Shown: one piece after another, positions 24,976 to 45,366 of the stretch | Layout: each line of letters opens with the position of its first letter | Position numbering within the stretch: position 1 is the first letter of the stretch | Assembly (NCBI GenBank): GCA_964370905.1 | Contig: CAYJKK010000004.1 | Location: 38,289-102,288, forward strand | Source of the DNA: an uncultured Clostridium sp. | GTDB taxonomy: Bacteria; Bacillota; Clostridia; TANB77; CAG-508 | Length of the DNA stretch: 64,000 nucleotides | Reading direction: 5' to 3' | The notes under the pieces: model-generated | The model's database searches: none | The model's input: only the letters and a program-made list of their open reading frames with translations | Told to the model about the DNA's origin: nothing | Translations under genes and position numbers: made by a program

Positions 24976-25449
24976 ATGGACAAGATTCCTAAAAGAAGAA
25001 AAAGAAAAGATAATCCATATACCATTTTTAAAAATGGTGATACATATAAAATATCATTTAAAGATAATCAAGGTAGGATACAAAAAGTTGATATTACAAA
25101 AGAAATATATGAAGTATTTAATGAATTTGAACTTATGGATAAGTCTTTAATAAATGAAGAAGAGAGATATTTTGAAAGATTAGAGTTATCAGAAGAATTG
25201 ATACATAAAAGGGCATTTATTAACCCAATAGCATTATTAGATGAGGTAGTTCTTAAAGATACTTTAAATAAGTTAAAAATAGCTTTAAATAGTTTACCTG
25301 AAATTCAAAAAAAAAGAATTGAAATGTACTATTTTAACAGTATGACATTTCAACAAATTGCTCAAAAAGAAGGTTGTACTAAGAGAGCAGTTAAGTTTTC
25401 TATAGATTTAGGAATAGAAAAAATGAAAAAAATTTTAAAAAATTTATAA
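24976..25449 (+). CDS. Sigma-70 region-4-like HTH protein typical of conjugative-transposon regulation modules
   Basis: LPEIQKKRIEMYYFNSMTFQQIAQKEGCTKRAVKFSI. RBS GGAGGA. Confidence 0.65.
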   Translation: MDKIPKRRKRKDNPYTIFKNGDTYKISFKDNQGRIQKVDITKEIYEVFNEFELMDKSLINEEERYFERLELSEELIHKRAFINPIALLDEVVLKDTLNKLKIALNSLPEIQKKRIEMYYFNSMTFQQIAQKEGCTKRAVKFSIDLGIEKMKKILKNL

Positions 25450-25923: not shown

Positions 25924-26283
25924 ATGGAGATATTAAAAGGAGATGTATATTATGCAATATTAGATCCAGTTGTAGGTTCAGAACAAGGTGGAAATAGACC
26001 AGTAGTTGTTGTTCAAAATAAATATGGAAATAAACATAGTACAACTGTATTGATTGCACCGATTACTAAAGATTCGCATCCTAAAAAGAATTTACCAACT
26101 CATATAGCAATAAAAAGAAATGATAAAATTAAACATAATTCTCTAATATTATTAGAACAAATCAGAGTTATTGATAAAAAGAGATTAGGTAATTATTTAA
26201 CAAAACTAGACAATGATATTATAGCAAGAATTGATAAAGCTATGCTTATATCACTTGGAATAGAAAATAGGAGGAAAATTTAA
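25924..26283 (+). CDS. mazF: MazF/PemK (EndoA-like) endoribonuclease toxin
   Basis: GDVYYAILDPVVGSEQGGNRPVVVVQN and LLEQIRVIDKKRL closely resemble B. subtilis EndoA. RBS GGAAGGAG. Confidence 0.85.
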   Translation: MEILKGDVYYAILDPVVGSEQGGNRPVVVVQNKYGNKHSTTVLIAPITKDSHPKKNLPTHIAIKRNDKIKHNSLILLEQIRVIDKKRLGNYLTKLDNDIIARIDKAMLISLGIENRRKI

Positions 26284-31766: not shown

Positions 31767-32312
31767 ATGGTAGTAAAAAAACGAACTATAAAAACGCAAG
31801 ATATATTTATATATTTTTATATAGCTGCAATACTTGGATGGATATTAGAAACAGTTTTTGCAATAATGCTAGAAAATCCAGAAAAAAGAGGATTTCTATA
31901 TGGACCACTATGTCCAATATATGGTTTTGGAGCTATAATGTTAGTACTAGTTAATTCAGCATTAAACAGAAAAAATATAAAAAAAATGTATATAAAGTTT
32001 GCAGTATTTGCAATTACATTTACAATTTTAGAATATTTGTCATCAGTAATTTTAGAAGCTTTATTTGGAATGAGATGGTGGGACTATACAGGATTATTTT
32101 TAAATTTCCAAGGAAGAATAGCATTAGGTTATTCTATAGCATTTGGACTAATAGGGATAATATTTATAAAACTAATATTAAAACCAATTAAGAGATTATG
32201 TGAAAAACTAAGAAAAACTTTAACTCCAAAAGGGGTAAATATATTAGTAACTATGATAACAATGATTTTTGTTATAGATATAGTACTTTCTTGCATAAGA
32301 TATGCAAATTAA
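31767..32312 (+). CDS. Polytopic membrane protein (putative ABC-transporter type IV-like family)
   Basis: 181 aa, 5-6 TM helices. N-terminal pattern ILGWILETVF is family-like, from memory. Confidence 0.45.
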   Translation: MVVKKRTIKTQDIFIYFYIAAILGWILETVFAIMLENPEKRGFLYGPLCPIYGFGAIMLVLVNSALNRKNIKKMYIKFAVFAITFTILEYLSSVILEALFGMRWWDYTGLFLNFQGRIALGYSIAFGLIGIIFIKLILKPIKRLCEKLRKTLTPKGVNILVTMITMIFVIDIVLSCIRYAN

Positions 32313-32376
32313 ATAATAAAATAATTATATAGAAACAAAAATTAAAACCATACATATCATATAATAGGTGATGTGT

Positions 32377-32890
32377 ATGGTTTTAAATGATTTAAAGGAG
32401 ATAGCAGAAAATATAAAAGAAAAAGACCCAGCAAGTAAAAATATATTAGAAGTAATAATTCTATATCCAGGTTTTCATATACTAATATTTCACAAGTTAG
32501 CACATTTTTTATATAATAAAAATTGGCTATTTTTAGCAAGGCTTGTATCACAAGTAGGAAGATTTTTAACTGGAATTGAAATACATCCAGGTGCAAAAAT
32601 AGGTAAACGACTTTTTATAGACCATGGAATGGGAATAGTAATAGGTGAAACTGCAACAATTGGTGATGATTGTACAATTTATCATAATTCGACTTTAGGT
32701 GGGACAGGGAAAGATGAAAATAAACGACATCCAGATATAGGAAATAATGTAATGGTAGGAGCAGGAGCTAAAATCTTGCGGTCCAATTAAGATAGGAAAC
32801 AATGTAAAAATAGGTGCAAATGCAACTGTACTTACAGATATACCAGATAATGTAACTGTTGTAGAATGTAATAGAATAGTAAAAACTTGA
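32377..32890 (+). pseudogene. cysE: Serine O-acetyltransferase, interrupted by a +1 frameshift near 32779
   Basis: Hexapeptide repeats. Frame 1 ends [10 protein letters not shown], while the +1 frame continues [28 protein letters not shown] to the TGA at 32888-90. Confidence 0.8.
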
Positions 32891-32915
32891 CAAGTCAAAT
32901 GATATTATGTATACT
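32887..32915 (+). promoter_or_regulatory. Sigma-A promoter of orphan gene A
   Basis: TTGACA, 17 nt, TATACT. The -35 overlaps the cysE stop codon. Confidence 0.6.
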
Positions 32916-32971
32916 ACTTAACAGGACAATTTTTAATAGATAAGTTATATACTAAAATTTTGGAGGACATT

Positions 32972-33754
32972 ATGAAGAAAGAAAACTTATTAAAATCAAT
33001 CGCTGATATTAATCAAGAAATCAAGAGTATTAAAGAAGAGATTGGTAATCAAGACAGAGTCAATATTGCTCTTGATATTAGATGTTTAGCAAGAAAAATA
33101 TTTACATTCTTACGAGATATAGAAGAAGAAATATTGGTTAAAGAATCTACTATTTGCTTGAATGCTACAGAGCAAGATGAGTTTGAAGAAGAACTTGAAA
33201 AAATGTCTTCTAAGTATAAAAAACTTAAAAAGGATCTTACATCTTTTAAAGGTTTAGATGGATTAGAAGATATCATAGAAAGCACAGTTGATGCAGCTAA
33301 ATGTTATATTAATGGATTGCAATATGAAGAGGCATTAAAAGAGCCTACACTATATAGTATAGATGAAAAGTACTTTATTTTTGCAAATACTGATTTAATA
33401 ACAGATGAAGCTAATATATATAATAGTTTAGATGCTGCTTTAGAAAATCTTGTTGCTAGAATAAATGTGTTATTCATTAAAGAAGATAATCAATATGTTA
33501 TTGATTCAGGAGATGAAGTAGGTTCAAGGATATATTGTTTACAAAATGCTGTTAATACTGCGTATGAAGTTGCGATATTATCTAAAATAAGTAGTGAAAA
33601 TCTAAAAATTATTAACTCAGTTGAGCCAAAAAGATTAAACGAAATTATAAAGTTTTTGAAAATTTTTAATAACTTTTATAGTGAAACTGATATGTTCCCA
33701 TATAGAACAATAACTACTTTTTTAGATGCACTTATAAAATGCATTAAGAAGTAA
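32972..33754 (+). CDS. Orphan acidic helical protein A (about 260 aa)
   Basis: RBS GGAGGA 5 nt before the ATG at 32972. No known motif. Confidence 0.65.
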   Translation: MKKENLLKSIADINQEIKSIKEEIGNQDRVNIALDIRCLARKIFTFLRDIEEEILVKESTICLNATEQDEFEEELEKMSSKYKKLKKDLTSFKGLDGLEDIIESTVDAAKCYINGLQYEEALKEPTLYSIDEKYFIFANTDLITDEANIYNSLDAALENLVARINVLFIKEDNQYVIDSGDEVGSRIYCLQNAVNTAYEVAILSKISSENLKIINSVEPKRLNEIIKFLKIFNNFYSETDMFPYRTITTFLDALIKCIKK

Positions 33755-33786
33755 AATTAAGCTTAAATTGTCCAAAATAACTTATC

Positions 33787-33819
33787 AAAAAAAGACTTAT
33801 GAAATCATAGGTCTTTTTT
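33787..33819. terminator. Intrinsic terminator of gene A
   Basis: A run, AAAGACTTATG-aaat-CATAGGTCTTT, T run. Confidence 0.75.
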
Positions 33820-33821
33820 AT

Positions 33822-33850
33822 TTGACAAAAAATACGATATTATGTATACT
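33822..33850 (+). promoter_or_regulatory. Sigma-A promoter of orphan gene B
   Basis: TTGACA, 17 nt, TATACT. GATATTATGTATACT is identical to promoter A. Confidence 0.6.
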
Positions 33851-33907
33851 GGATGTAGGACAATTTTACCATAGATAAGTTATAAAACATTTAAGGAGGA
33901 CTACTGT

Positions 33908-34687
33908 ATGCAAAAATCAATAATTGGTAGAATGAGTGAAATTATAAATATAGGTGACACTATATTGAAAAACTTCATTAGCTACGATAAGAAAGCATTG
34001 TCTCAAAAAATCTTAAACTTTACGGATTCAATGTATGAATTAATTAAAGATTTAGAAAGCTATGTATCATCAGATATATTAGTAGAAGATGATCTACTAA
34101 TTGATCGATATGTAAAAAATCTAGAATATGTAGTTAAAAACATTGAAGAAATATTTCATTATTATACGGGAATAACGGAGCTGAGCAATTCAATAGTTAC
34201 GTATATTTATATACTAACTAAAAAAGATACTGAGCCCTGTGAACTAGATACTTTTGGATTAAAAATGTTAGAAGAAGATCTAGTTGACTTTGAAAAAGTT
34301 AGAGTGAATTTGGAGAAATTAATTTGCAGACCTAAAATAAAGGAAATATATAGTGAAATAGTCACTGTAGCTTCTTTATCACAAGCAATACTTCAAGATG
34401 ATGGTTTGGGAAATGGTGAAATGATACTCCCAGAAGATATAACTATAAATGAAGAAGGTTTCAAAAAACTAAAAGATAGTTCATATGAAGCATATAAAAG
34501 GATTTTAGAATTTTCAATAATAGATAGAGACTATCTAATTAAAGAGGAATATTCTAAAGAGATAGATACTATATATGAATGGCTATCCACATTTGTAGTG
34601 TATTTAGTTGGAAACAAATTAGCGGTAGGATTAATAGGAACTTTAACAGCTTTTGATGCTGTATATCAAGAGTTTTTTGATTGTTAG
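33908..34687 (+). CDS. Orphan acidic helical protein B (259 aa)
   Basis: RBS AAGGAGGA. No known motif. Weak C-terminal resemblance to A (TxTxF-DA). Confidence 0.65.
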   Translation: MQKSIIGRMSEIINIGDTILKNFISYDKKALSQKILNFTDSMYELIKDLESYVSSDILVEDDLLIDRYVKNLEYVVKNIEEIFHYYTGITELSNSIVTYIYILTKKDTEPCELDTFGLKMLEEDLVDFEKVRVNLEKLICRPKIKEIYSEIVTVASLSQAILQDDGLGNGEMILPEDITINEEGFKKLKDSSYEAYKRILEFSIIDRDYLIKEEYSKEIDTIYEWLSTFVVYLVGNKLAVGLIGTLTAFDAVYQEFFDC

Positions 34688-34717
34688 AATAACTTAAATT
34701 GTCCCAAATAACTTATC

Positions 34718-34751
34718 AAAAAAAGACTTATGAAAATATAAGTCTTTTTTT
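34718..34751. terminator. Bidirectional terminator (gene B and the convergent PRTase gene)
   Basis: AAAGACTTAT-gaaaat-ATAAGTCTTT flanked by A and T runs. Confidence 0.75.
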
Positions 34752-34761
34752 ATATGGTTAT

Positions 34762-35619
34762 TTAATTAATACCGTAAATATTATTGTCAACTAATAGCTG
34801 AGCTCTTTTTTTAGTTTTCTCATCACTATTTAAAGAATTCGTAATAAATTCAGGATGGTTAATTAAAAAGTTTCTCATAGATTCGTCTGGATTATGATAG
34901 AAATTATTTAATAACTCTTGTTGTACTGTAGTAATTAAATTCATATCTACAGCTTTTTGAAAAAGCTTTTCATCTACATTTACTAAAGAATAGGATGCAA
35001 TACCTTTAGATTCAATTATTTCTGTACCACCTTGCATTCTATCAACAACAACGCAAGACCAAGCAATTTTACCACCTAAATTTTCAATAGCAGGTATCCA
35101 AGCTCTAACATAACTTGAAGCTACAGTAATTAAATCAGCAATATGCAGTACTTTTTTATTAGCTAAGCTAGTTATTTCTAAATCGCTATTAAAGTCATAA
35201 GAATTAATCTTAATTGATAAATCTTTATATATTGAAATATGAGGTTTTTTTAATATATATGATATTACATTTGAAAAGAACCAATCACGTCTTTCACCAG
35301 CAGATATATAGTCTATTTCGTTAATATCTATATTTGCTTTTATTATAGTTACCATAGCATCTATAACATTTTTATATATTTCATTATTTTCATATTGTAA
35401 AAAAGTTTTATCAAAAACTTTTTTAGGTAAAGTGTCTTTGTCACTTAAACTTTCATCTATAAAAGAAAGTAAGTTTACAGCATCTGTTTCAGATCCATAT
35501 ATAAAATGTGTATTTATAAAATATGGTCCTATTTTACCAGATGTATACCAAAAAGGCTTGTTTTCCTCACAAAATTTTATAGCATTTGTGCTAAATAAAT
35601 ATGATTCTATATTAATCAT
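34762..35619 (-). CDS. Type I phosphoribosyltransferase, PyrE-like long form (285 aa)
   Basis: N-terminal AIKFCEENKPFWYTSGKIGPYFIN resembles OPRTase. Degenerate PRPP loop VLHIADLITVASS. Confidence 0.5.
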   Translation of the reverse strand: MINIESYLFSTNAIKFCEENKPFWYTSGKIGPYFINTHFIYGSETDAVNLLSFIDESLSDKDTLPKKVFDKTFLQYENNEIYKNVIDAMVTIIKANIDINEIDYISAGERRDWFFSNVISYILKKPHISIYKDLSIKINSYDFNSDLEITSLANKKVLHIADLITVASSYVRAWIPAIENLGGKIAWSCVVVDRMQGGTEIIESKGIASYSLVNVDEKLFQKAVDMNLITTVQQELLNNFYHNPDESMRNFLINHPEFITNSLNSDEKTKKRAQLLVDNNIYGIN

Positions 35620-35673
35620 TGTAATCCTCCTAAATTTAAATTAATAGTATTCTAAATAAAAACTAAATAATTG

Positions 35674-36189
35674 TCAATCAAAATATCCTATATATGGTAA
35701 ATTTCTAAATTTTTCTCCATAATCTAATCCATAACCAACAACAAATTTATCTTCTATTTTAAAGCCAGTATAATCTACATTAATATCTACAACTCTTCTT
35801 GAAGGTTTATCTAGAAGAGTGCAAAGTTTAACAGATTTAGGATTTTTACTATCAAGATATTTTAATAGATATGATAATGTTCTTCCAGTATCTATAATAT
35901 CTTCAACAACAATTACATCTTTACCAGTAATATTTTCTTTTAAATCTAATTCTAATTTAATAATTCCAGTACTTTCAGTTTCATTACCATAACTAGAAAC
36001 CTTAATAAAGTCAAAAATCATAGGATTTGAAATTCTTTTACTTAGGTCAGTAGTGAAAAATACAGAGCCTTTTAAAATACAAATAAGCACGATTTCTTTT
36101 CCTATATAGTCACTTTCTATTTGTTTTGCCATTTCTAATATTTTGTTTTGTAAAGATGATTCATCAATTAGTACATTTAAATTTTTCAT
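35674..36189 (-). CDS. hpt: Hypoxanthine phosphoribosyltransferase
   Basis: 171 aa. PRPP motif VIVVEDIIDTGRTL. C-terminal YGLDYGEKFRNLPYIG. Confidence 0.9.
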   Translation of the reverse strand: MKNLNVLIDESSLQNKILEMAKQIESDYIGKEIVLICILKGSVFFTTDLSKRISNPMIFDFIKVSSYGNETESTGIIKLELDLKENITGKDVIVVEDIIDTGRTLSYLLKYLDSKNPKSVKLCTLLDKPSRRVVDINVDYTGFKIEDKFVVGYGLDYGEKFRNLPYIGYFD

Positions 36190-36273
36190 ATATTACTCCA
36201 TTTCTTTTTTATAGATTATATATCTACTAGATTTAAATATCAATAAAAAATAAAAAAATGTAAAATTAAATTT

Positions 36274-36302
36274 TTGACAATTAACATAATGTATGATAAA
36301 AT
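36274..36302 (+). promoter_or_regulatory. Sigma-A promoter of orphan gene C
   Basis: TTGACA, 17 nt, TAAAAT with an upstream TGa (extended -10). Confidence 0.6.
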
Positions 36303-36353
36303 ACTATACGAATTTAATTAAAAAAAACTTATATTACAGCAGGAGGAAACAGC

Positions 36354-36944
36354 ATGAAAAAAGTAAATCAAAACAAAATAGTAGAGGTGTCAAAAGCACT
36401 ATATAGTTTAAAACGATTTGAAGAAATATGTAAGCAAATATATCTAGGTTTTGAAACATTACAATCATCAAATGAAGCAAGAGAAGAAAGCATATTTAAA
36501 TTATCAAACTCTATTATTTACTTTAATGATATATTACTTGAACTAGAAAAAATAGTTAAAAGTAAAAAAGTAGATAACGAAATTGAAACCCTTATAATTG
36601 AAACAGAAAGTCATTTAGAAACAGATATACAGTCAGATAAATATGGATTTGGAGTAGAAATATATTTCGATAAAGAAGATTTGCCAGTACACTCAAAGAC
36701 TGTAACTATAAAAAAGAGTAACGTCATTCTTATTTTGGAATATAAATATAATCTAGAAAAAAGTTATGAAACACTAGAAATATCAAAGATGTTTCGTCAA
36801 GAAAGCTTGCATATGCAAAATTCTTTTGTTTTAGATTTGAAATCTGGAACAATAGATGAAATAGCTATTTCAAATGAAATGAGCTTATGTATTATAGAGG
36901 ATTTGAAATTAGCTGTTGATACAATAAAAAAAGCATTTAAATAA
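36354..36944 (+). CDS. Orphan protein C (196 aa)
   Basis: RBS AGGAGGAAA. C-terminal region paralogous to D. Confidence 0.65.
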   Translation: MKKVNQNKIVEVSKALYSLKRFEEICKQIYLGFETLQSSNEAREESIFKLSNSIIYFNDILLELEKIVKSKKVDNEIETLIIETESHLETDIQSDKYGFGVEIYFDKEDLPVHSKTVTIKKSNVILILEYKYNLEKSYETLEISKMFRQESLHMQNSFVLDLKSGTIDEIAISNEMSLCIIEDLKLAVDTIKKAFK

Positions 36945-36954
36945 TATAAGTTGT

Positions 36955-36988
36955 GTGCCAGAATAGATTTATCTGGCGCAATTTTTTT
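36955..36988 (+). terminator. Intrinsic terminator of gene C
   Basis: GTGCCAGA-atagattta-TCTGGCGC followed by a T run. Confidence 0.7.
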
Positions 36989-37017
36989 ATTTAGAGAATA
37001 TATAATAATATGGAATT

Positions 37018-37046
37018 TTGACAAACTGATTAAAAGATGATAATAT
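37018..37046 (+). promoter_or_regulatory. Sigma-A promoter of orphan gene D
   Basis: TTGACA, 17 nt, TAATAT with an upstream TGa. Confidence 0.6.
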
Positions 37047-37095
37047 ATGTGAAATCTAGTTTAAAAAACTTATATTACAACAGGAGGAAAACATC

Positions 37096-38031
37096 ATGAG
37101 TATTAGTAGATATGAATTTGTCCAAGTAGCAGAATTATTAGGAGGAAAGGTTGTAGAGAACTATAGTACCAAGGCTACCAAATTAGATTTTGCAGAATAT
37201 ATTAGCAAAATTGCTGAGCAGAACACGTTGTATACAGGTATATATGAATTTAATAATGGTATTAGATTTATACATAACCAAGATGAAGCGAGAGTACAAA
37301 TAGTACGGGATCAAATTTGGGAATTAAAAAGCAAAGAAAGACCGTCTAAAACATTATATGAAATTGTGTCTGAAACTGAAGAACTATTTAAAGGTCAAGA
37401 TAAAGTTATAGAAAATGAGGAAGGATATATATTAACAACAATAGCATATATATCTGCTATCTTAATTTCTAAAGAAGAGTATAGTAAGCAAAAAGTACAA
37501 GAAATTATGAATAATGTATATAACAATCTTTTTATTCAAATGGAAGAAACTTTTTTAGTAGATATTTCGGAATTAATTAATGTAATGAAGAAGTATAAGC
37601 ATATATTTAAAAAAGAACATTTCATTAATTCACTAACAGAAGAAAGTGAAAGTAAAGTAGATATAAAAATATATCTAGAAGAAAATTCCATGGAGATTGA
37701 TATAATTTCGAAAGATAAGTTATGTTCGTTAAGAATGTATCATGGCAGTACAGAAATAATGTTGGAGATAATTAGTGATAAATATAAGCCATATGAATAT
37801 TATTATAATTTGAAAACCAAAACAGAAACACTTGAATTTTCTCCGAGAGATACTGGATATAGGTCTGGATATTTTAAATTAAATCTTCAAACAGGCTCTA
37901 TCGGAGATAAATTTATTACTCAAGAACAGTTAGATGACTTAATAACTGATCTAGAAGAAGTAATTAAAATTGTTGAAGATAAAATCTTAATGTATTTACC
38001 AAATTATAAGAAACTAGTGACTGAAAAATAA
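37096..38031 (+). CDS. Orphan protein D (311 aa)
   Basis: RBS AGGAGGAAAA. C-terminal ETLEFS...FKLNLQTGSIGD...ITDLEEVIKIV aligns with C. Confidence 0.65.
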   Translation: MSISRYEFVQVAELLGGKVVENYSTKATKLDFAEYISKIAEQNTLYTGIYEFNNGIRFIHNQDEARVQIVRDQIWELKSKERPSKTLYEIVSETEELFKGQDKVIENEEGYILTTIAYISAILISKEEYSKQKVQEIMNNVYNNLFIQMEETFLVDISELINVMKKYKHIFKKEHFINSLTEESESKVDIKIYLEENSMEIDIISKDKLCSLRMYHGSTEIMLEIISDKYKPYEYYYNLKTKTETLEFSPRDTGYRSGYFKLNLQTGSIGDKFITQEQLDDLITDLEEVIKIVEDKILMYLPNYKKLVTEK

Positions 38032-38042
38032 AATATAAGTTT

Positions 38043-38075
38043 AAACTACCAAATATATTAGTTTGGTAGTTTTTT
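38043..38075 (+). terminator. Intrinsic terminator of gene D
   Basis: AAACTACCAAA-tatattag-TTTGGTAGTTT followed by a T run. Confidence 0.75.
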
Positions 38076-38143
38076 ATTGCAAGATAGTAGTAAATATGGT
38101 AAAGTAATAATAGGGACTTAAAATAAAATAATGGGAGAAAAAA

Positions 38144-39202
38144 ATGTTTAAAAGAATAGATACAAAAAAAATAATGGTAGGAAATGTACAAATAGGTGGG
38201 CAAAATAAAGTTGTAATACAATCTATGTGTAATACAAAAACAAAAGATATAGAAGCAACTGTAAAACAAATATTAGAACTAGAAAAATTAGGATGTGAAA
38301 TAGTTAGAGTAGCATGTTTAGATATAGAAGATGCAAAAGCAATAAAAGAAATTAAACAAAAAGTAAATATTCCACTTGTTGCTGATATTCATTTTGACTA
38401 TAAAATAGCATTAGAAGCAATAGACGCAGGAGTAGATAAAGTACGAATAAACCCAGGAAATATTGGAAGCATCGAAAGAATAAAAGCAGTTGTAGATAAA
38501 TGCAAAGAAAAAAACATACCAATTAGAATAGGGGTAAATGCAGGTTCACTAGATAAAGAATTATTACAAAAATATGGAAAACCAACAGCAAAAGCAATGG
38601 TAGAAAGTGCTAAAAAACATACAGATATATTAGAATCTTTAGACTTTAAAAACTATGCAATATCTTTAAAAGCTTCTAAATTAGATTTGTGTATAGAAAG
38701 CTATAAAGAAGCAGCTAAAGTATTTAATTGCCCTCTTCATTTAGGTGTAACAGAATCTGGAACAGAATTTGGTGGAACAATAAAATCTAGTATAGGATTA
38801 GGTATCTTATTAAGAGAAGGTATAGGAGATACTTTGAGAGTATCTTTATCAGATGATCCGACTAAAGAAATACCAGTAGCAAAAGAGATACTTAAAAATT
38901 GTAACTTATATTCAAAATCACCAACATTAATAGCCTGCCCTACTTGTGGTAGAACACAAATAGATTTAATTCCTATGGCTAAGAAAGTAGAAGAGTTTTT
39001 ACAAACAATAGAAGCGGATATTACTGTTGCAGTAATGGGATGTGTTGTAAATGGACCTGGAGAAGCAAGAGAAGCAGATATTGGTATTGCTGGAGGAATT
39101 AATGAAGGCTTGTTATTTAAAAAGGGTGAAATAATTAGAAAAGTAAAACAAGAAGAAATTGTAAAAGTTTTAAAAGAAGAAATTTTAGATATGATAAAAT
39201 AA
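38144..39202 (+). CDS. ispG: 4-hydroxy-3-methylbut-2-en-1-yl diphosphate synthase
   Basis: 352 aa. [29 protein letters not shown]...GCVVNGPGE cluster ligands. Confidence 0.92.
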
Positions 39203-39409
39203 GCAAGAAAAGGAAGAATAACATCCTTTAAAGAATGCTTAAAAAATAATATTGTTCCATTTATTATATTAGAAAAAGAGAAATTATACTATTATAGAGG
39301 TTTAAAAGAGTATCAAACTGGAGGAGAAAAAGGATATTTAGAAGATACATGTCTACATGCTCAAGACCAATATATTCTTCTTATTAAAAAGTTTCTAAGT
39401 TTAAATTAA
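39203..39409 (+). pseudogene. C-terminal remnant of a Fic-family protein gene (68 codons, no start codon)
   Basis: Open frame ARKGRITSFKECLKNNIVPFIILEKEKLYYYRGLKEYQTGGEKGYLEDTCLHAQDQY. Resembles the region from the end of the Fic motif (GNGRxGRL) to the C-terminus of small Firmicute Fic proteins, from memory. Confidence 0.45.
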
Positions 39410-39431
39410 AAATAAAGAAAAACAACAAAAA

Positions 39432-39467
39432 AACAGTAATAAACATTTAAGTTAATTACTGTTTTTT
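39432..39467. terminator. Bidirectional terminator (ispG side and the capA-like side)
   Basis: AACAGTAAT, 13-nt loop, ATTACTGTT, flanked by A and T runs. Confidence 0.6.
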
Positions 39468-39470
39468 ATA

Positions 39471-40763
39471 TTATATCTCTTTACCTAGTACGTTATATAC
39501 ATTATCACGTTCTTTAACAAGTAAGTTATATGTAGAAGTACCAATAGATGTATCAATACCATTTTCAAAATCATATATTTCTTGCTCTATATCTAAAACC
39601 TTCATACGCCTAATAGATAAATTAGGATCTTTATACATATATATGGGTATATAATCTGCACTATCAACTGTTAATTTATTATCAGATGTTTTAGTAATTT
39701 CTAAATTTAATATAGCAGAAGTTCTAGTGTTTTGATAAACTTGATCACATATAAAATTACCAAGTGCATATACTACAAAACAATCTTTTATAGTTCCATC
39801 ATCTAGTGTAATTGTTCTTTTTTCCATAGGTTGAATTACATGTGGATGATTTCCAAGAATTATATCAACGCCATTTTTAAATAAGAAATCTGTAAGTTCA
39901 TCTTGATTTGAATTTTGCTTTTGTACATATTCAGTCCCCCAGTGCATAGATGTAATAATAACATCCGCTTCTTGAGTTTTAGCTAAATTAATATCAGATA
40001 AAATTAAAACTTTATCAATTAAATTAACAGAATAACTTTTATCAGTTGGAACAGGAATACCATTAGTTCCATATGTATAACTTAAAAATGCAACTTTAAG
40101 ACCATTTAAATCTTTAAACAAAATTGTATCTCTAGATTCCTTAGATGTATATGTACCAACATTTTCAATATTATTTTCTTCTAACTTTTCAATAGTTCTT
40201 TCTAATCCAGAATAACCATAATCTAAAGCATGATTACCTGCAGTAGATAAAATATCTATTCCTATATTACTTAAGCTAGTAGCTAAGCTGCTAGGAGAGT
40301 TAAACAAAGGATAATTACTATAACCTCTATCTTTACCTGCAAAAGTTGTTTCTAAACTTGCAATAGTTATATCCGCTTCTTGAGTATATTTAATAATATC
40401 ATTAAAAACATAATCAAAATCATATGTATTAGTACTACTTTGGTATGCATCAAAATATTGAGTATTATGACACATAACGTCACCTAAGGCAGTAAGGGTA
40501 AAAGATTTACTAGTAATAATTTCTTCTTGTTCTAGTTCATTAGAATCACTACTATCTAAAGAACTATTATCAATATTTTGTGTATTAATATCTGAACTAG
40601 TATGTGATGTTTCATTATCCCTATTTAAGAAGTAAAATAAAGTAATAATAGATAATATAATTAAGATTATAAAAATAAAAGATATAAAAAGATTTTTGAA
40701 ATTTGATTTAGACTTAGTAATATTATTGTTATTAGAATAATTACTATGTTTACCATGTTTCAT
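39471..40763 (-). CDS. CapA-family (PGA_cap) metallophosphatase-like membrane-anchored protein
   Basis: N-terminal TM helix. GDVMCH, AGNHALDYG, SMHWGTEY, GNHPHV motifs. Confidence 0.8.
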   Translation of the reverse strand: MKHGKHSNYSNNNNITKSKSNFKNLFISFIFIILIILSIITLFYFLNRDNETSHTSSDINTQNIDNSSLDSSDSNELEQEEIITSKSFTLTALGDVMCHNTQYFDAYQSSTNTYDFDYVFNDIIKYTQEADITIASLETTFAGKDRGYSNYPLFNSPSSLATSLSNIGIDILSTAGNHALDYGYSGLERTIEKLEENNIENVGTYTSKESRDTILFKDLNGLKVAFLSYTYGTNGIPVPTDKSYSVNLIDKVLILSDINLAKTQEADVIITSMHWGTEYVQKQNSNQDELTDFLFKNGVDIILGNHPHVIQPMEKRTITLDDGTIKDCFVVYALGNFICDQVYQNTRTSAILNLEITKTSDNKLTVDSADYIPIYMYKDPNLSIRRMKVLDIEQEIYDFENGIDTSIGTSTYNLLVKERDNVYNVLGKEI

Positions 40764-40921
40764 ATAAATTCCCCCTTTAATATATCTAAAAATATATCAT
40801 AAGGAGAATAAAAAGTATATAAGATATTGATAAAATATATATTTGTGTAATATAATGTACAAATAAAGAGATATAAATAGATCACTTTAGATATATTAGG
40901 CTCATGAAAGGAGCAAAAAAT

Positions 40922-41806
40922 ATGAAAGAAAGTATTTTTAAAGGATGTGGAACAGCAATCATCACACCATTTATAGGTGATGAAATTAATTATGAGGAAT
41001 TTGAAAAAATGTTAGAATTCCAAATTAAAGAAGGAGTAAAAGCAATTATTGTATGTGGGACAACAGGTGAATCTTCTACAATGACAGAAGAGGAAAAGAA
41101 AACTCTAATTAAGTTTACAGTAGATAAAGTAGCTAAAAGAGTAAAAGTAATAGCTGGAACAGGAGGAAATTCTACTAAAGCAGTTATAGAATTATCTAAA
41201 TATGCAGATAGTGTTGGTGTTGATGGACTTTTAATAGTAACACCATACTATAATAAAACAACACAAGAAGGATTAAGACTCCACTATAATAAAATAGCAG
41301 AAGCGGTAAATACACCAATAATAATATATAGTGTACCAGGAAGAACTGGGTTAAACATAGATGCAAACACGTGTTTAGAACTATCTAAAATAAAAAATAT
41401 AGTTGCTATAAAAGAAGCAAGTGGTAATATTTCGCAAGTAGCTAAAATAGCTAGCTTATGTGGAGATAACTTACATATATATTCAGGAAATGATGACCAG
41501 ATTGTACCTGTATTATCATTAGGTGGATTAGGAGTAATATCAGTACTTTCTAATATAATACCAAAAGATACACAAAAAATGGTAGAAAGCTATTTATCAG
41601 GAGATATAAAAACATCATTAGAACTACAATTAAGAACTTTAGATTTATCTAATAGTCTTTTTACAGAAGTAAATCCAATACCAGTAAAAGCTGCTTGTAA
41701 TATGATTGGATTTAATAGTGGCATTCCTAGATTACCATTAATAGAAGCAAGTAATAATTGTAAAGAAAAAATGAAAAAAGAAATAGAAAAATATATGAAT
41801 AAATAG
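40922..41806 (+). CDS. dapA: 4-hydroxy-tetrahydrodipicolinate synthase
   Basis: GTTGESSTMT, YNKTTQEG, IKEASG. RBS AAAGGAG before the ATG at 40922. Confidence 0.92.
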   Translation: MKESIFKGCGTAIITPFIGDEINYEEFEKMLEFQIKEGVKAIIVCGTTGESSTMTEEEKKTLIKFTVDKVAKRVKVIAGTGGNSTKAVIELSKYADSVGVDGLLIVTPYYNKTTQEGLRLHYNKIAEAVNTPIIIYSVPGRTGLNIDANTCLELSKIKNIVAIKEASGNISQVAKIASLCGDNLHIYSGNDDQIVPVLSLGGLGVISVLSNIIPKDTQKMVESYLSGDIKTSLELQLRTLDLSNSLFTEVNPIPVKAACNMIGFNSGIPRLPLIEASNNCKEKMKKEIEKYMNK

Positions 41807-41815
41807 AGGTGAGTA

Positions 41816-42568
41816 ATGAAAGTTTTAGTAATCGGAGCTAAAGGAAGAATGGGGCAAGAGGTAATAAATCAAATAAATACATCAGAAGATTATATAGTTT
41901 TAGCTGGAATAGATAAAGAAGATGAAATATGTAATAATATTAAGATATATGATGATCCATATAAATTAGAAGAAGTACCAGATATAATAATAGATTTTTC
42001 TCTTCCTATTGTAACAATGAAAATTTTAAAATATGCAGTAGATAAAAAAGTGCCTATGGTAATTGCTACAACAGGGTTTACAGAAGCGGAAACAGAACAA
42101 ATAAACAAATGTTCGGAAGTTGTACCTATATTTAAATCTCATAATATGTCATATAACATTAGTCTTATGATGAACATTATAAGCAAGTTAGCTATTGAAT
42201 TAGAGGATAATGATATAGAGATAACTGAAACACACCATAAAAATAAGGTAGATAGCCCAAGTGGTACAGCATTGATGCTTGCAAATTCTATGAATGAAGC
42301 ATTAAATGATAAAATGGAATATATGTTCGATAGAACAAAACAAAGAAAACAAAGAGATATAAATGAGATAGGTATACATTCAGTAAGAGGCGGAACAGAG
42401 GTAGGAACACATAGTGTAACTTTCTTTGGTGATAATGAAAAATTTGAAATAACTCATACTGTAACATCTAGAAGTATTTTTGCAAAAGGGGCAATAAAAG
42501 CAGCTAAGTTTTTAATAAATAAGCCAGCTAAAATGTATAATATGAAGGATTTAAGCATAAATAAATAG
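41816..42568 (+). CDS. dapB: 4-hydroxy-tetrahydrodipicolinate reductase
   Basis: MKVLVIGAKGRMG, ETHHKNKVDSPSGTA. Confidence 0.92.
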   Translation: MKVLVIGAKGRMGQEVINQINTSEDYIVLAGIDKEDEICNNIKIYDDPYKLEEVPDIIIDFSLPIVTMKILKYAVDKKVPMVIATTGFTEAETEQINKCSEVVPIFKSHNMSYNISLMMNIISKLAIELEDNDIEITETHHKNKVDSPSGTALMLANSMNEALNDKMEYMFDRTKQRKQRDINEIGIHSVRGGTEVGTHSVTFFGDNEKFEITHTVTSRSIFAKGAIKAAKFLINKPAKMYNMKDLSINK

Positions 42569-42586
42569 AAAAATACTATGTAAACC

Positions 42587-42615
42587 TTGATTATGAATAA
42601 AATATAGTATATAAT
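42587..42615 (+). promoter_or_regulatory. Sigma-A promoter of orphan gene E
   Basis: TTGATT, 17 nt, TATAAT. Confidence 0.55.
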
Positions 42616-42701
42616 AATGCCTATGCTAATATTAATTGTATTCATATAATTATATGGAAGCAAATAATAGTTTAGATTATAATACAAGAGGAGACAGAAA
42701 A

Positions 42702-43607
42702 ATGAAAAACACGATGAAAGAAAAAACAAAAGAACTAGTGCTAGACACTAAGAAAATGGAGGAGTTAGCAATTCGGGCAAAAACAGTAGGAACATATATT
42801 GAGTTTCTAAATAGTAATGGTTACTGTGAAGAAATAGATGTAGTTAAATTAGAAGTATTGCAGGAACAATTAAATGAAATCTCTACAGATATGATGCATA
42901 TTGAATCTCAAGTGAGATTACATAAGTTACAATATAGTTTAAAAAGCTATATTGTAGAAATTGTAGAAGAATTAGAGTTAGAAAATATATTGCCATATAT
43001 TTTTATTAACAAAAGATTATCATCTTTCTTAGAAAGATGTAGTTCGATAAAATTTTATCAATATCATATGAGTAATTTCTTTAGTTATTTAGAAGAAAGA
43101 CTAGATGAAGTATCAAAATACTTAACTAAAAATGAAAAAGGTAATAAGATTTTAGAGTATATTGAAGAAGCAATTAAAAAAAGGAATGCATTAGAAATTG
43201 AATATTTGAAATCTCCAACAGTTAACCCATATGCCCATTATAAGAATGAAGCTATATATTATCCAAAATTAAATAACCATTTTATAGCTTTAGGTTTAGA
43301 ATGGGAGCATATAGAACGTGATTTTCACACCAAATATCTTGATAAAGGATATACAGGTGATAGATCTGTTCGAGTAAATGGTAGAATAATATATGGTGAT
43401 TTACTTAAAATCTTCTTAAGGCTAGTAAATGAATTAGAACCTAGCTTAGAGACAATTGAAATTAAAAGGAAACTAAATTATGTATATGATTCTCATATGG
43501 CATATTCAAAAGCTAATATGTGCAGGAATCCTTTTAATTTTACAATGCTTAATAATTTTAAGGAATTAGAATTAGAGCTAGAAAAACTATTTAAAATATT
43601 AATATAA
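42702..43607 (+). CDS. Orphan protein E (about 301 aa)
   Basis: RBS GAGGAGA before the ATG at 42702. The ORF-track TTG start at 42636 lacks an RBS. Confidence 0.65.
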   Translation: MKNTMKEKTKELVLDTKKMEELAIRAKTVGTYIEFLNSNGYCEEIDVVKLEVLQEQLNEISTDMMHIESQVRLHKLQYSLKSYIVEIVEELELENILPYIFINKRLSSFLERCSSIKFYQYHMSNFFSYLEERLDEVSKYLTKNEKGNKILEYIEEAIKKRNALEIEYLKSPTVNPYAHYKNEAIYYPKLNNHFIALGLEWEHIERDFHTKYLDKGYTGDRSVRVNGRIIYGDLLKIFLRLVNELEPSLETIEIKRKLNYVYDSHMAYSKANMCRNPFNFTMLNNFKELELELEKLFKILI

Positions 43608-43616
43608 TCTAAACTA

Positions 43617-43646
43617 AACAGGCTACTTAAGTGTAGCCTGTTATTT
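43617..43646 (+). terminator. Intrinsic terminator of gene E
   Basis: AACAGGCTAC-ttaagt-GTAGCCTGTT followed by ttattt. Confidence 0.7.
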
Positions 43647-43673
43647 GACTATTTTATTAACATAATGTATAAT
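43645..43673 (+). promoter_or_regulatory. Sigma-A promoter of orphan genes F-G
   Basis: TTGACT, 17 nt, TATAAT. Confidence 0.6.
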
Positions 43674-43772
43674 GTTTGCATAGTATTTTTAAATGTGTGT
43701 TATATATAAATATATTTACACGTATATCCCTATAATAATATTATAATACAAAAGACAAGAGGAGATAGCAAC

Positions 43773-44288
43773 ATGAGTGAAGAAAAAATAAAGTATACAA
43801 AGGAAGAAATAGAAAAGTTTAAAGAGATTAATTTTCACTTTAATACAATAAGTGAAAAAATTAAAGAAACTTTAACTAAAAAGAGTAATGGAAATATTAT
43901 TTCATATATTTCAAATATTCCAAGTAAAGAGCAAACGGTTAAAGAATTTATATTTGATGAGATAATTGTTCATATTTTTAAAAATCAAATTAAAATTGAA
44001 GAACCTATAATTGTACAATCTGTTATAGTAGATAAAGAAAATGAAGATGTAGAGCTAGAATATTTTTTCGTAGCAGTAGATACACAATTACCTATATGCT
44101 ATTTGAAAAATACGGAATTAAAGGTTCAAGATTTTCCAATTCTTATGTCTACAGTGTTAGCTCATTTAAAAACACAAGCAGCATTTATAGAAGCAACATC
44201 AATAATAGAGTTGCCAAAACCTTTTATAATTAAGAAGTCAATTGAAGAGGTAAGAAGATTAGTAAATTCATATAAACTTGAGGAATAG
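43773..44288 (+). CDS. Orphan protein F (171 aa)
   Basis: RBS AGAGGAGA. No known motif. Confidence 0.65.
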   Translation: MSEEKIKYTKEEIEKFKEINFHFNTISEKIKETLTKKSNGNIISYISNIPSKEQTVKEFIFDEIIVHIFKNQIKIEEPIIVQSVIVDKENEDVELEYFFVAVDTQLPICYLKNTELKVQDFPILMSTVLAHLKTQAAFIEATSIIELPKPFIIKKSIEEVRRLVNSYKLEE

Positions 44289-44343
44289 ATTAAAACTGAT
44301 TTTAGGGATAATCAGTTTTAGAATAACAACAAAGGAGAAACAA

Positions 44344-45159
44344 ATGGAAGTTTTTAAAAAATTGGCTGATATACAAATTATACCAGACTTAGTAACAAGT
44401 ATAAGACAACGGGCAGAAAAATTTTTACCGTGCTCCTCAAAAAGTAAAAAGCAAATGAATTATGAAAAAGTACATTTAAAATACTTCACTAATTTTTATT
44501 TAGCTAGAACAGAGTTATACATTGTTATAGTAGAAGTATTTAAAAGAGTTCAACAAATTGAAAGGAATAAATCACAAATCAGTTTAGTAAGAAAACAATT
44601 TGAAAATACACTAAGTAAGTTCTCTTTTAAAGATTACTATAAGGTAAATAAGCAATCAGATGATGAGACTGAAAAAATTAAAATATGTATAGAATTGATA
44701 AAAAATAATTCTAAAGCTGAGTGTTTAGAAAAAATATCATTTGATAACTTACAATTTTCATTTCGTGGAAATCTAAGAGAAAATGCAATAGAACTCCTTA
44801 TTTCAAATGCATTAGAGGATACGGTTTTAATTGAATTAGAAGCATTGCTAAAAGCTTTAAAGAATGAAGAACTATTTTCAAAATTTGAAATTTTGAAATA
44901 TTCTAAATGTGGATTAACTGTGGCTCATGGAAATATTGAATCAATTATTTTGGTTATGCAAGAATTGGAAACTTTCTTAAAAGTTATAGCTCAAAAAAAT
45001 CGAAAACATATAAAAGGCCATATGTACAAAGAATTAATGAGTAAGTTCAAAATCATGTATGAATATCAAGCACTTTATGTAGATATTTCTTATTTGAATG
45101 ATATCTTTATATTAATTCACAAATTTATAAATGAAATATATGTTTCATTAAAAAAATAA
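44344..45159 (+). CDS. Orphan protein G (about 271 aa)
   Basis: RBS AAAGGAGAAA before the ATG at 44344. The ORF-track start at 44278 would overlap F and a 10-bp hairpin. Confidence 0.6.
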   Translation: MEVFKKLADIQIIPDLVTSIRQRAEKFLPCSSKSKKQMNYEKVHLKYFTNFYLARTELYIVIVEVFKRVQQIERNKSQISLVRKQFENTLSKFSFKDYYKVNKQSDDETEKIKICIELIKNNSKAECLEKISFDNLQFSFRGNLRENAIELLISNALEDTVLIELEALLKALKNEELFSKFEILKYSKCGLTVAHGNIESIILVMQELETFLKVIAQKNRKHIKGHMYKELMSKFKIMYEYQALYVDISYLNDIFILIHKFINEIYVSLKK

Positions 45160-45175
45160 CTTAATTTAGTTAAAC

Positions 45176-45210
45176 AAAAAATCATATTGTAAAAGATATG
45201 ATTTTTTTGT
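45176..45210 (+). terminator. Intrinsic terminator after gene G
   Basis: AAAAATCATAT-tgtaaaag-ATATGATTTTT followed by a T run. Confidence 0.75.
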
Positions 45211-45366
45211 TTTTAAATTTCTAATCTTAGAGTTGAATTTTAAAATATATTTTATGTTTATAATTTTAAGATTAATATATTTATTATTATATACTAGCTG
45301 AAAAAAATTACTTGAAAAAAATTTTAAGTAATGTTATTATAGAAAAAAATTAAGGAGGAATAAAAA

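Follow-up and report, generated by a model that had tools for sequence, protein, structure and literature searches.

Exact complementarity between leader and post-stop sequence in five predicted orphan-gene expression cassettes

Seven genes (A to G) were analysed in the window, by which we mean the complete 64 kb stretch of gut Clostridia DNA under study, which has a GC content of 26%. Homologue searches with the seven proteins returned no orthologues, and the genes are true orphans. With promoters and terminators taken from prediction, each orphan appears as a self-contained expression cassette that opens with a near-consensus sigma-A promoter, continues with a short leader, a strong SD and the CDS, and closes with a very short 3'UTR before an intrinsic terminator. 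In cassettes A to E, a segment of the leader (arm M, or arms X and Y in A and B) is complementary to a segment near the stop codon (M', or X' and Y'). The elements of cassettes A and B are as follows:

32887-32915, + strand, predicted promoter of cassette A, TTGACA-17-TATACT (11/12 match)
32924-32932, + strand, leader arm X of A, GGACAATTT, at the predicted transcript 5' end; pairs exactly with 33765-73
32939-32948, + strand, leader arm Y of A, GATAAGTTAT, 13 nt upstream of the SD (32962-66); pairs exactly with 33777-86
32972-33754, + strand, orphan CDS A, 260 aa
33765-33773, + strand, tail arm X' of A, AAATTGTCC, exact complement of X
33777-33786, + strand, tail arm Y' of A, ATAACTTATC, exact complement of Y, ending 1 nt from the terminator stem
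33788-33819, + strand, predicted terminator hairpin of A with U-tract
33822-33850, + strand, predicted promoter of cassette B, TTGACA-17-TATACT
33858-33866, + strand, leader arm X of B; pairs exactly with 34696-704
33874-33883, + strand, leader arm Y of B; pairs exactly with 34708-17
33908-34687, + strand, orphan CDS B, 259 aa
34689-34704, + strand, tail of B: an additional nested partner, ATAACTTA (34689-96), then arm X' (34696-704)
34708-34717, + strand, tail arm Y' of B, flush with the terminator stem
34718-34751, + strand, predicted terminator hairpin of B, shared with the convergent gene 34762-35619

Between proteins A and B no similarity was detectable. The tails of the two cassettes (58 nt) are 93% identical; in the 5' flank the two agree fully in the -35 box, the -10 box, X and Y, and differ in the intervening spacers. 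On the 5' side conservation stops at arm Y, and on the 3' side it begins 3 nt before arm X'. The helices of A and B run in crossing order (X, Y ... X', Y') and are not nested, so that a pseudoknot-like or alternating arrangement would be needed. Weaker secondary pairings that overlap the SD are found only in A (UUUUGGA:UCCAAAA) and B. The stop codon of a frameshifted cysE falls within the -35 box of the A promoter.

Cassettes C and D each carry a single arm pair:

36274-36302, + strand, predicted promoter of cassette C, TTGACA-17-TAAAAT, with TG
36326-36336, + strand, leader arm M of C, AACTTATATTA, 4 nt upstream of the SD (36341-46); pairs exactly with 36942-52
36354-36944, + strand, orphan CDS C, 196 aa
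36942-36952, + strand, tail arm M' of C, TAATATAAGTT, with the stop codon inside the arm
36954-36989, + strand, predicted terminator hairpin of C with U-tract
37018-37046, + strand, predicted promoter of cassette D, TTGACA-17-TAATAT, with TG
37057-37076, + strand, leader arm of D: TAGTTT, a 3-nt AAA bulge and AAACTTATATT, 17 bp in total; SD at 37082-87
37096-38031, + strand, orphan CDS D, 311 aa
38032-38048, + strand, tail arm of D, AATATAAGTTT plus AAACTA, the final 6 nt overlapping the terminator base
38043-38072, + strand, predicted terminator hairpin of D

Without the bulged part, the exact arm pair of D is 37066-76 with 38032-42. The likeness of protein D to protein C is limited to the C-terminal 56 aa of D (36% identity). 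In the tails of these paralogous cassettes the arm alone is conserved, and the rest, including the terminators, is unrelated. Further downstream lie cassette E and an operon of two orphans:

42587-42615, + strand, predicted promoter of cassette E, TTGATT-17-TATAAT
42668-42681, + strand, leader arm M of E, TAGTTTAGATTATA, 6 nt upstream of the SD (42688-93); pairs exactly with 43603-16
42702-43607, + strand, orphan CDS E, 301 aa; the true ATG is at 42702
43603-43616, + strand, tail arm M' of E, TATAATCTAAACTA, containing the stop codon and flush with the terminator
43617-43642, + strand, predicted terminator hairpin of E
43645-45211, + strand, F-G orphan operon, with predicted promoter (43645-73) and terminator (45173-45211)
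43725-43732, + strand, 8-mer in the F leader, TATCCCTA
43773-44288, + strand, CDS F
44291-44320, + strand, hairpin after F whose loop holds TAGGGATA (44303-10)
44344-45159, + strand, CDS G

The same order is found in 5/5 cassettes, namely near-consensus promoter, arm M ending 4-13 nt upstream of the SD, CDS, arm M' and terminator, and in 5/5 the distance from the end of M' to the terminator stem is 0-1 nt. Both arms are thus bracketed by a predicted sigma-70-type promoter (10-11/12 matches) and a predicted intrinsic terminator. Judged from the predicted ends, the 3'UTR measures 9-33 nt. Exact arm length is 9-14 nt, and D reaches 17 bp with its bulge. The flanks are common to the cassettes and the encoded proteins are unrelated. 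A sequence-only reading of this DNA had claimed six exact arm pairs, and all six proved to be exact reverse complements; its placement of the first element of A and B (arm X) at the predicted transcript 5' end is likewise correct. Its rule for "each orphan gene", which holds for A to E, is slightly overstated, since G has no match and the match of F comprises only 8 nt (43725-32 against the hairpin loop at 44303-10). The F-G operon follows the rule weakly or in part.

Almost all complements of the arms in the 64 kb window lie at the cognate tails, and no other copies of the arm-bearing flanks were found there. Searches of 1.35 Mb of relatives, of viral contigs and of metagenomes gave no copy of the cassette flanks elsewhere, and the species itself was not met in any other sample searched. 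The leaders of C, D, E and F have the motif TTATAWTACA in common, the complement of which is rich in stop codons. A 7-mer, ATAAGTT/AACTTAT, is common to the A/B and C/D arms, with 8 of its 32 occurrences in the window falling in those flanks.

Non-cognate leader/tail pairs of the window were used as background, and a match of at least 10 nt was found in 2.2% of them and one of at least 11 nt in 0.5%. Over 1407 genes from the window and 80 related loci, cognate pairs were not enriched (31 at 10 nt or longer vs 34.9 expected), and the complementarity is therefore not a clade-wide rule. When a composition-weighted score was used, with 519 other monocistronic-looking genes from the window and the 80 related loci as controls, A/B ranked in the top 0.8%, C/D in the top 1.7%, E in the top 0.2% and F in the top 1.9% (orphans vs controls, Mann-Whitney p = 2e-5). 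As the flanks of A/B and of C/D are paralogous, these are only three to four independent units. Exact matches of 12-16 nt are common between unrelated intergenic regions here, and in thermodynamic folding about 5-10% of the control mRNAs match the orphans in predicted leader-tail pairing. Cognate complementarity is in excess at the level of the window too, and across the clade it is not.

Additional information comes from comparison of the paralogous cassettes. The leaders of D and E are homologous, as are their tails, and the mid-helix segment differs in leader and tail alike yet pairs (AAAAAAC vs AGA in the leader, GTTT vs TCT in the tail). In an alignment of five paralogous cassettes, anchored by hand on structure with the shared TTATA core as reference, both partners have changed in 7 of 17 pairs. 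The covariation score of this hand-anchored alignment of five sequences is 0.27, compared with 0.11 in shuffles (0 of 500 reach 0.27) and at most 0.09 with a slid partner. G-U pairs, a possible mark of selection on the sense RNA strand, are absent from the helices. The complementarity is statistically in excess, its geometry is constant, and it is kept over diverged paralogous flanks. The earlier argument for selection on pairing is partly supported: complementarity rather than sequence is preserved, as seen in the outlier position of the orphans against a matched background, in the C/D arm and in the D/E helix middle; an action in RNA is still a prediction.

Chance in low-complexity, AT-rich DNA, spread by ancestry, is an unlikely explanation of these arms. 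It would require one or two ancestral cassettes that happened to have complementary ends and were then duplicated, and this would fit the low GC content, the many exact 12-16 nt matches between unrelated intergenic regions, the duplicate nature of A/B and C/D, the stop-codon-rich complement of TTATAWTACA in the leaders of C, D, E and F, the lack of a clade-wide excess, the 5-10% of controls with similar predicted pairing and the fact that regulatory modules have also been copied beside unrelated genes in relatives L006 and L054. However, four independent units all fall in the top 2%, with a probability of about 1e-7 before post hoc selection is allowed for; E reaches its 0.2% rank by itself, and A/B carries two arms. 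Moreover, the arms are intact amid diverged neighbouring non-coding sequence, the D/E middle segment is altered on both sides and still paired, and complements of the arms are essentially limited to the cognate tails. We regard as equally unlikely that the arms are inverted repeats acting at the DNA level, either as crossover sites at which a site-specific recombinase flips the CDS against a fixed promoter and terminator (ON/OFF) or as joints for the exchange of coding segments between a promoter and a terminator that stay the same. SD and CDS of each cassette do lie between exact inverted repeats of 9-14 bp, as in an inverton (the repeats of the fim switch have only 9 bp), with promoter and terminator outside them, and the conserved flanks enclose unrelated CDSs (A vs B, D vs E), with the conservation limits of A/B at arm Y and 3 nt before X'. 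Two tyrosine recombinases are encoded at 26974-29455. Yet these integrase-like enzymes, at the end of a conjugative element at least 3.5 kb away, are the sole recombinases, and none is dedicated to the cassettes. The repeats differ among A/B, C/D and E, without a shared consensus, so that only a recombinase of loose specificity could serve all of them. The two separate pairs in crossing order in A/B do not fit a single inverted repeat, the D repeat has a 3-nt bulge, all seven genes are ON-oriented, and the flanks are absent from the relatives, viral contigs and metagenomes searched.

It is very improbable that the arms are half-sites of a DNA-binding regulator, placed up- and downstream of the gene for repression of the cassette by looping or roadblock. 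Arm Y (GATAAGTTAT) comes close to a palindrome, X and X' each resemble half of the palindrome GGACAA/TTGTCC, ATAAGTT/AACTTAT recurs in the A/B and C/D arms (8/32 window occurrences), X and Y are identical between A and B where the spacers differ, and in relative L066 operator copies are found around the promoter of an Xre-type gene and again downstream of its stop codon. On the other hand, no regulator gene accompanies the cassettes, arm sequences differ between groups (E has no motif in common with A/B), X and Y do not keep their order and spacing from leader to tail, and the D/E covariation favours complementarity over a fixed recognition sequence. Still further from likely is a mobile or duplicating unit made up of the intergenic module M'-terminator-promoter-M, MITE-like with inverted ends, the genes merely lying between copies. 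While the A-B and C-D junctions fit this layout, with about 90-115 nt from M' to M, six half-modules stand alone (the leaders of A, C and E and the tails of B, D and E), the A-B junction does not end in a simple terminal inverted repeat, target-site duplications are lacking, and neither the window nor 1.35 Mb of relatives nor viral or metagenome collections gave a further copy. A MITE or IS element as such was rejected as a candidate on the grounds that the arms are internal to promoter and terminator and that neither target-site duplications nor further copies were found.

As the best reading we tentatively favour, with somewhat less than even confidence, a closing helix between 5'UTR and 3'UTR that may act on mRNA stability or translation, by analogy with hbs and icaR. 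In the mRNA, 9-14 nt of leader ending 4-13 nt 5' of the SD would pair with the spacer between stop codon and terminator and would put SD and CDS inside one loop. The long-range helix would be set directly against the terminator hairpin, and the 5' and 3' ends of the transcript would thus sit together. When full-length mRNAs were folded, the helix had a probability of 0.96 in C, 0.94 in D, 0.96 in E and 0.84 for arm X of B; in A the two arms are alternatives (0.44 and 0.51). The expected number of leader-tail base pairs is 9-21 in the cassettes vs a control median of 2.9. Taken alone, the arms are AU-rich and form weak helices (-7.6 to -13.8 kcal/mol) over a span of 600-940 nt. The closing helix could set mRNA lifetime, ribosome access or both: it might protect the leader against RNase Y and RNase J and keep exonucleases from the 3' end, and it would be located in the standby region of the 30S subunit. 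Since the stop codon overlaps M' or adjoins it, the helix would be opened by translation; ribosomes terminating within or beside M' would melt it, so that the helix would be coupled to translation. Our account of the transcript boundaries, of helix formation in vivo and of any influence on translation or decay is inferred. In a more far-reaching version, which we consider improbable, the seven orphans would be cargo of an undescribed plug-in chassis in which a conserved promoter-leader and tail-terminator hold unrelated, very fast-evolving or exchanged coding segments, with a closed-loop mRNA that brings the stop near the SD. If true, terminating ribosomes might be returned to the message they have just read, or translation might be licensed for complete transcripts alone; bacteria would then have a counterpart of eukaryotic mRNA circularisation, linked to gene birth or acquisition.

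Long-range intramolecular pairing in B. subtilis mRNAs acts in vivo (PMC12697547), and in the hbs mRNA of this species a 14-bp interaction between 5' and 3'UTR shields an RNase Y site (Braun et al. 2017, PMC5737220). The cassettes resemble hbs as predicted monocistronic Firmicute mRNAs with a strong SD, and would resemble it in a leader-3'UTR helix of about 14 bp (14 bp in E) that need not cover the SD and in a coupling of translation and decay. However, hbs is a housekeeping gene that is conserved, its 5'UTR is long and structured, and its RNase Y and RNase J1 sites have been mapped, whereas the genes described here are orphans with a 3'UTR of 9-33 nt and an arm that abuts stop codon and terminator, in a design present in five cassettes. 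With S. aureus icaR (Ruiz de los Mozos et al. 2013, PMC3868564; icaR and RNAIII are reviewed in PMC7821165) the cassettes would share intramolecular pairing of both ends of one mRNA and a duplex that could be an RNase III target. In icaR, in contrast, a 3'UTR of about 390 nt carries a UCCCC motif that base-pairs with the SD; the main arms here end 4-13 nt upstream of the SD and are not anti-SD sequences. The earlier analogy with hbs and icaR fits the arms in their contiguous complementarity (9-14 nt, against about 7-14 nt in mRNAs of this type), which goes beyond chance; as the arms leave the SD uncovered, the icaR mechanism is not directly transferable.

There are also likenesses to structures in which complementary sequences flank a whole RNA segment and form a closing stem beside other helices. 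The processing stalks of rRNA operons and the RNase III sites of phage T7 have stems of at least 20 bp that are cleaved by RNase III; the arms here have 9-17 bp and would reach at least 20 bp only by stacking on the terminator hairpin. At the DNA level, fimS, the invertons of gut bacteria and integron cassettes have in common with our cassettes that short inverted repeats bracket a segment and that variable cargo sits in a constant expression context. Invertons, however, usually flip promoters and have one repeat consensus per recombinase and a recombinase nearby, and integron cassettes are promoterless and have a local attC hairpin, intI and attI; none of these features was found here. An integron gene cassette was rejected in view of the near-consensus promoter of each cassette, arms that are a whole CDS apart and a context without integron integrase.

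If the pairing is active in RNA, the cassettes would be compact, portable test cases of about 1 kb each, with their own promoter and terminator, and could serve to study in Firmicutes what end-to-end pairing does to mRNA lifetime and translation. A further implication would be that newly arisen or newly acquired genes are expressed from a reusable regulatory frame, which, if true, bears on the orphan genes of uncultured gut bacteria. To our knowledge, pairing between 5' and 3'UTR is known in only a handful of bacterial mRNAs, each a single case; here one genome has five cassettes with the same end-pairing design, and the proteins they encode are unrelated.

Seven orphan genes, A to G, are found at three sites in the window, all of them among housekeeping genes:

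32972-33754, orphan CDS A, 3' of a frameshifted cysE
33908-34687, orphan CDS B, together with A 3' of the frameshifted cysE
36354-36944, orphan CDS C, between hpt and ispG
37096-38031, orphan CDS D, between hpt and ispG
42702-43607, orphan CDS E, between dapB and pyrC
43773-44288, orphan CDS F, between dapB and pyrC
44344-45159, orphan CDS G, between dapB and pyrC

The start codon of E is the ATG at 42702, which has a strong SD upstream, and not an earlier TTG. None of the seven could be assigned to a family with significance by Pfam, NCBIfam, PHROGs or PADLOC. When A, E and D were searched against 5.8e9 proteins, the query itself was the sole match, as it was when D was subjected to a full HMMER scan of 1.84e9 representatives; a search for contigs encoding A found none. 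AlphaFold2 single-sequence models (pLDDT 48 for A and 51 for E) were too poor for a fold search. GC3 is slightly higher in the orphans (0.145-0.186) than in most of the window's housekeeping genes, where values of about 0.08-0.14 are typical; the overall GC content of the window is 26%. The seven genes are thus real orphans. The nearest matches of the window's IspG reach 84% identity at most and belong to gut Clostridia of the CAG:273 / CAG:354 type, which are uncultured and have small genomes. At 90% identity this IspG forms a singleton, and the collections therefore contain the species just once. Gene order is poorly conserved across 80 loci from related gut Clostridia that were anchored on ispG (ispG, hpt and pyrC are adjacent in one, L012), and these loci contain no counterparts of the cassettes described below; tblastn of the orphans against them yielded a chance motif of C inside ispH as its sole match.

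Each orphan is part of a cassette, by which we mean its promoter, leader, SD, CDS, tail and terminator. The predicted promoters are near-consensus and are among the best promoter-like matches in 32300-45400, a region in which Rfam found nothing; each cassette also has an SD of the AGGAGG type and a predicted intrinsic terminator hairpin. The cysE-like serine acetyltransferase gene (32371-32890) is frameshifted near 32785, and its final TGA falls within the -35 box (TTGACA) of cassette A, so that no terminator separates it from A.

The sequence-only reading had proposed that the leader of each orphan gene is complementary to sequence at or just after its own stop codon, and all the arm pairs that it listed are exact reverse complements where it had placed them. 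A leader arm M, lying before the SD, has its complement M' between stop codon and terminator; A and B carry two leader arms, X and Y, with the tail partners X' and Y'. Leader arms end 4-13 nt ahead of the SD. In C and E the stop codon is part of the tail arm; in D the arm begins immediately behind the stop codon, and in A and B 9-11 nt behind it. Each of the five cassettes A to E leaves 0-1 nt between the end of this arm and the base at which terminator pairing begins, and the stop-to-terminator spacer of C, D and E is tail arm throughout.

For an exact-match test, the leader was defined as the 70 nt before the start codon, and the tail ran from 6 nt upstream of the stop codon to 45 nt downstream of it. 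The longest cognate matches are 10 nt in A and B (each with a second arm of 9 nt), 11 nt in C and D, and 14 nt in E, while 2.2% of the window's non-cognate leader/tail pairs match over at least 10 nt and 0.5% over at least 11 nt. Among 1407 genes (the window and the 80 related loci), 31 cognate pairs of at least 10 nt were found versus 34.9 expected. Complementarity is therefore not a general property of the clade, and a clade-wide rule was rejected. A composition-weighted test used as controls 519 further genes that are flanked on both sides by intergenic space of their own. Here A/B rank at 0.8%, C/D at 1.7%, E at 0.2% and F, with TATCCCTA at 43725-32 matching TAGGGATA at 44303-10, at 1.9%, and the orphans differ from the controls with a Mann-Whitney p of 2e-5. 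No leader/tail complementarity was seen in G. The sequence-only observation is confirmed; its “each orphan gene” holds for A to E, extends to F at the rank given, and fails for G.

If A/B and C/D are counted once each, four independent promoter-bearing units remain. That all four lie in the top 2% is far beyond chance, even allowing for the post hoc choice of the gene class. This is tempered by the fact that exact matches of 12-16 nt among unrelated intergenic regions are common in the window's DNA, and that 5-10% of 110 control mRNAs reach the leader-tail pairing predicted for the orphans by thermodynamic folding (9.2-20.8 expected pairs, F just 1.3; controls: median 2.9, 95th percentile 13.4). 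On balance, we consider selection on the complementarity quite likely.

The flanks of the cassettes are related in ways that the proteins are not. The proteins of A and B are not similar (blastp E > 5), but the tails of the two genes are 93% identical over 58 nt; their 5' flanks are mosaic, with identical -35 boxes, extended -10 boxes, X and Y, separated by spacers that differ in sequence and length. The C and D proteins have in common only 56 C-terminal residues (36% identity), their leaders share a 28-nt block (96% identity), and their tails share only the arm, as the terminator hairpins are unrelated. The promoters of C (36280-36294) and F (43656-43670) have an identical 15 nt, ATTAACATAATGTAT, in spacer and extended -10, and again the proteins are unrelated. 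C, D, E and F each have TTATAWTACA in the leader, directly 5' of the SD, and these are four of its six occurrences in the window; in 1.35 Mb from relatives, the motif never occurs ahead of an SD. Searches of viral contigs and metagenomes for the A/B leader and tail and the C/D leader yielded no matches or chance matches within CDS.

The proteins of D and E are unrelated. Their leaders (TAGTTT-[AAAAAAC|AGA]-TTATAWTACA) and their tails (AATATAA-[GTTT|TCT]-AAACTA) are homologous, with a middle segment that has changed in leader and tail alike yet pairs. To quantify covariation, the five cassettes were anchored on the TTATA core and placed by hand on the structure. In this five-row alignment 7 of 17 pairs are altered in both partners, and the covariation score is 0.27 versus 0.11 in shuffles, none of 500 reaching it; sliding the partner by 1-3 columns lowers it to at most 0.09. 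Because the alignment was placed on the structure by hand and has just five rows, we regard these counts as supportive, not decisive. Taken together, the comparisons indicate that complementarity, rather than a fixed sequence, is what is maintained.

Full-length folding predicts the helix with a probability of 0.96 in C, 0.94 in D, 0.96 in E and, for arm X, 0.84 in B; for A it predicts either one arm or the other (0.44 and 0.51). The energies of the arms alone range from -7.6 to -13.8 kcal/mol. The D helix is longer than originally noted, with 11 bp, a 3-nt bulge and 6 bp more (37057-37076 with 38032-38048). In A and B the arm order is X, Y ... X', Y', so that the two helices cross and could form jointly only side by side or as a pseudoknot-like structure; otherwise they would alternate. 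B has an extra nested partner of Y, ATAACTTA, at 34689-96. Weaker alternative pairings in both genes reach the SD from sequence at or beside tail arm X': 33771-33777 can pair with 32958-32964 in A (UCCAAAA with UUUUGGA), and 34692-34702 with 33887-33896 in B, each the 5' part of the SD region. Speculatively, the 5'-end arm X could compete with the SD for one 3'UTR segment. Mimicry of the terminator's 3' arm by the leader was dismissed, as it is present only in A/B and D and absent in C and E. Between F and G, a hairpin at 44291-44320 (AAAACTGATT ... AATCAGTTTT) has TAGGGATA in its loop, complementary to the F leader; it may act as an attenuator between the two genes, or contact the leader through its loop.

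The best-supported mechanism is a closing helix between 5'UTR and 3'UTR at the RNA level, to which we tentatively give somewhat less than an even chance. Pairing within the mRNA is the simplest reading because the arms are individually complementary, their position relative to SD, stop codon and terminator is constant, a bulge is tolerated and a change is compensated. A test of G-U wobbles for strand-specific (RNA-level) selection had no informative positions in the arms. Since the tail arm is flush with the terminator, the long-range helix would stack on the terminator hairpin; the 3' U-tract would be placed beside the 5' part of the mRNA, with SD and CDS as an enclosed loop. By analogy with known cases, such a helix would protect both transcript ends and occupy the 30S standby region, and as M' overlaps or abuts the stop codon, both initiating and terminating ribosomes would open it. 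In Bacillus subtilis hbs, a 14-bp 5'/3'UTR interaction modulates how RNase Y cleaves the leader (PMC5737220). In icaR, pairing of the 3'UTR with the SD of the same mRNA yields a substrate for RNase III, and the ends of RNAIII likewise pair (PMC3868564; PMC7821165). Intramolecular pairing also acts in vivo in mRNAs of B. subtilis at distances of hundreds of nucleotides (PMC12697547). Unlike in icaR, the arms of the window cassettes lie outside the SD, and a strict icaR mechanism therefore does not apply. The net effect might be stabilising, as in hbs, or repressive, as in icaR. Compared with known UTR pairing, the novelty would lie in its recurrence, its position flush with the terminator and clear of the SD, and its link to orphan cassettes that have a regulatory chassis in common.

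DNA-level readings have to be weighed against this helix, among them inversion or exchange of cassettes between the repeats. Its possible agents are encoded next door, where window 1-29455 looks like an integrative conjugative or mobilisable element:

88-1206, relaxase
2126-3955, T4 coupling protein
6431-8767, VirB4/TraG-like ATPase
11333-14614, SNF2 helicase
15768-17612, N6/N4 methylase
18807-21860, type III restriction subunit
24976-25449, sigma-70 region 4 protein
25924-26283, MazF toxin
26974-29455, two tandem tyrosine integrases, adjoining uvrB

The recombinases, the unrelated cargo proteins and the location of promoter and terminator outside the repeats would suit inversion or exchange. 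However, the recombinases belong to the adjacent conjugative element, the repeat sequences differ from group to group, two pairs cross in A/B, and seven of seven genes are in the ON orientation. That the arms are operator sites is suggested by the near-palindromic Y and by a 7-mer common to the A/B and C/D arms, which hold 8 of its 32 occurrences in the window, but E lacks the common motif, there is no regulator gene nearby, and the arms covary. The E leader contains a perfect 14-nt palindrome, CATATAATTATATG (42643-42656), 12 nt 5' of arm M, which could be an operator or a small hairpin; perfect AT-rich palindromes are frequent in the window (e.g. 57990-58007, 54516-54531 and 61881-61896). 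Low-complexity DNA and the few independent units would leave room for chance plus inheritance, against which stand the ranks among the 519 controls, the selective survival of the arms and the compensated change in D/E. A MITE-like intergenic module was rejected, since six half-modules occur alone; there are also no other copies.

The same geometry was found in several top-scoring control genes of the relatives. In L044 (15232-15969, non-orphan), an 11-nt arm (CAACACTAAAT) adjoins the SD and its partner adjoins the stop codon; in L051 (1847-2206, non-orphan), an 11-nt arm beside the SD (AATCGCACAAA) has its partner between stop codon and terminator, flush with the latter. The 3'UTR of L031 18904-19416 contains CATTTTCCT immediately downstream of a GC hairpin; this sequence is the complement of the SD/start region AGGAAAATG of the same gene, an anti-SD arrangement that resembles icaR. 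From these three cases, end-to-end pairing may be in sporadic use in the clade. Other high scorers in the same test are clearly DNA-level features, namely a 12-nt leader/tail complement in an IS200-type tnpA (L048 15310-15774) and, in a small Xre-type gene (L066 18889-19083), copies of AGTTCACT/AGTGAACT in the promoter spacer, at the transcription start and after the stop codon. The reuse of regulatory modules is not unique to the window either, since L054 has an identical 40-nt terminator module 3' of two adjacent unrelated genes (3625-3664 and 4956-4995), and L006 has two copies of a promoter with a conserved leader upstream of unrelated genes (11375-11514 and 14181-14325). The L006 leader, in which a hairpin (GACACAACT ... 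AGTTGTC) encloses GGAGGTGA, is a candidate small-ORF leader or uncharacterised cis-regulatory RNA.
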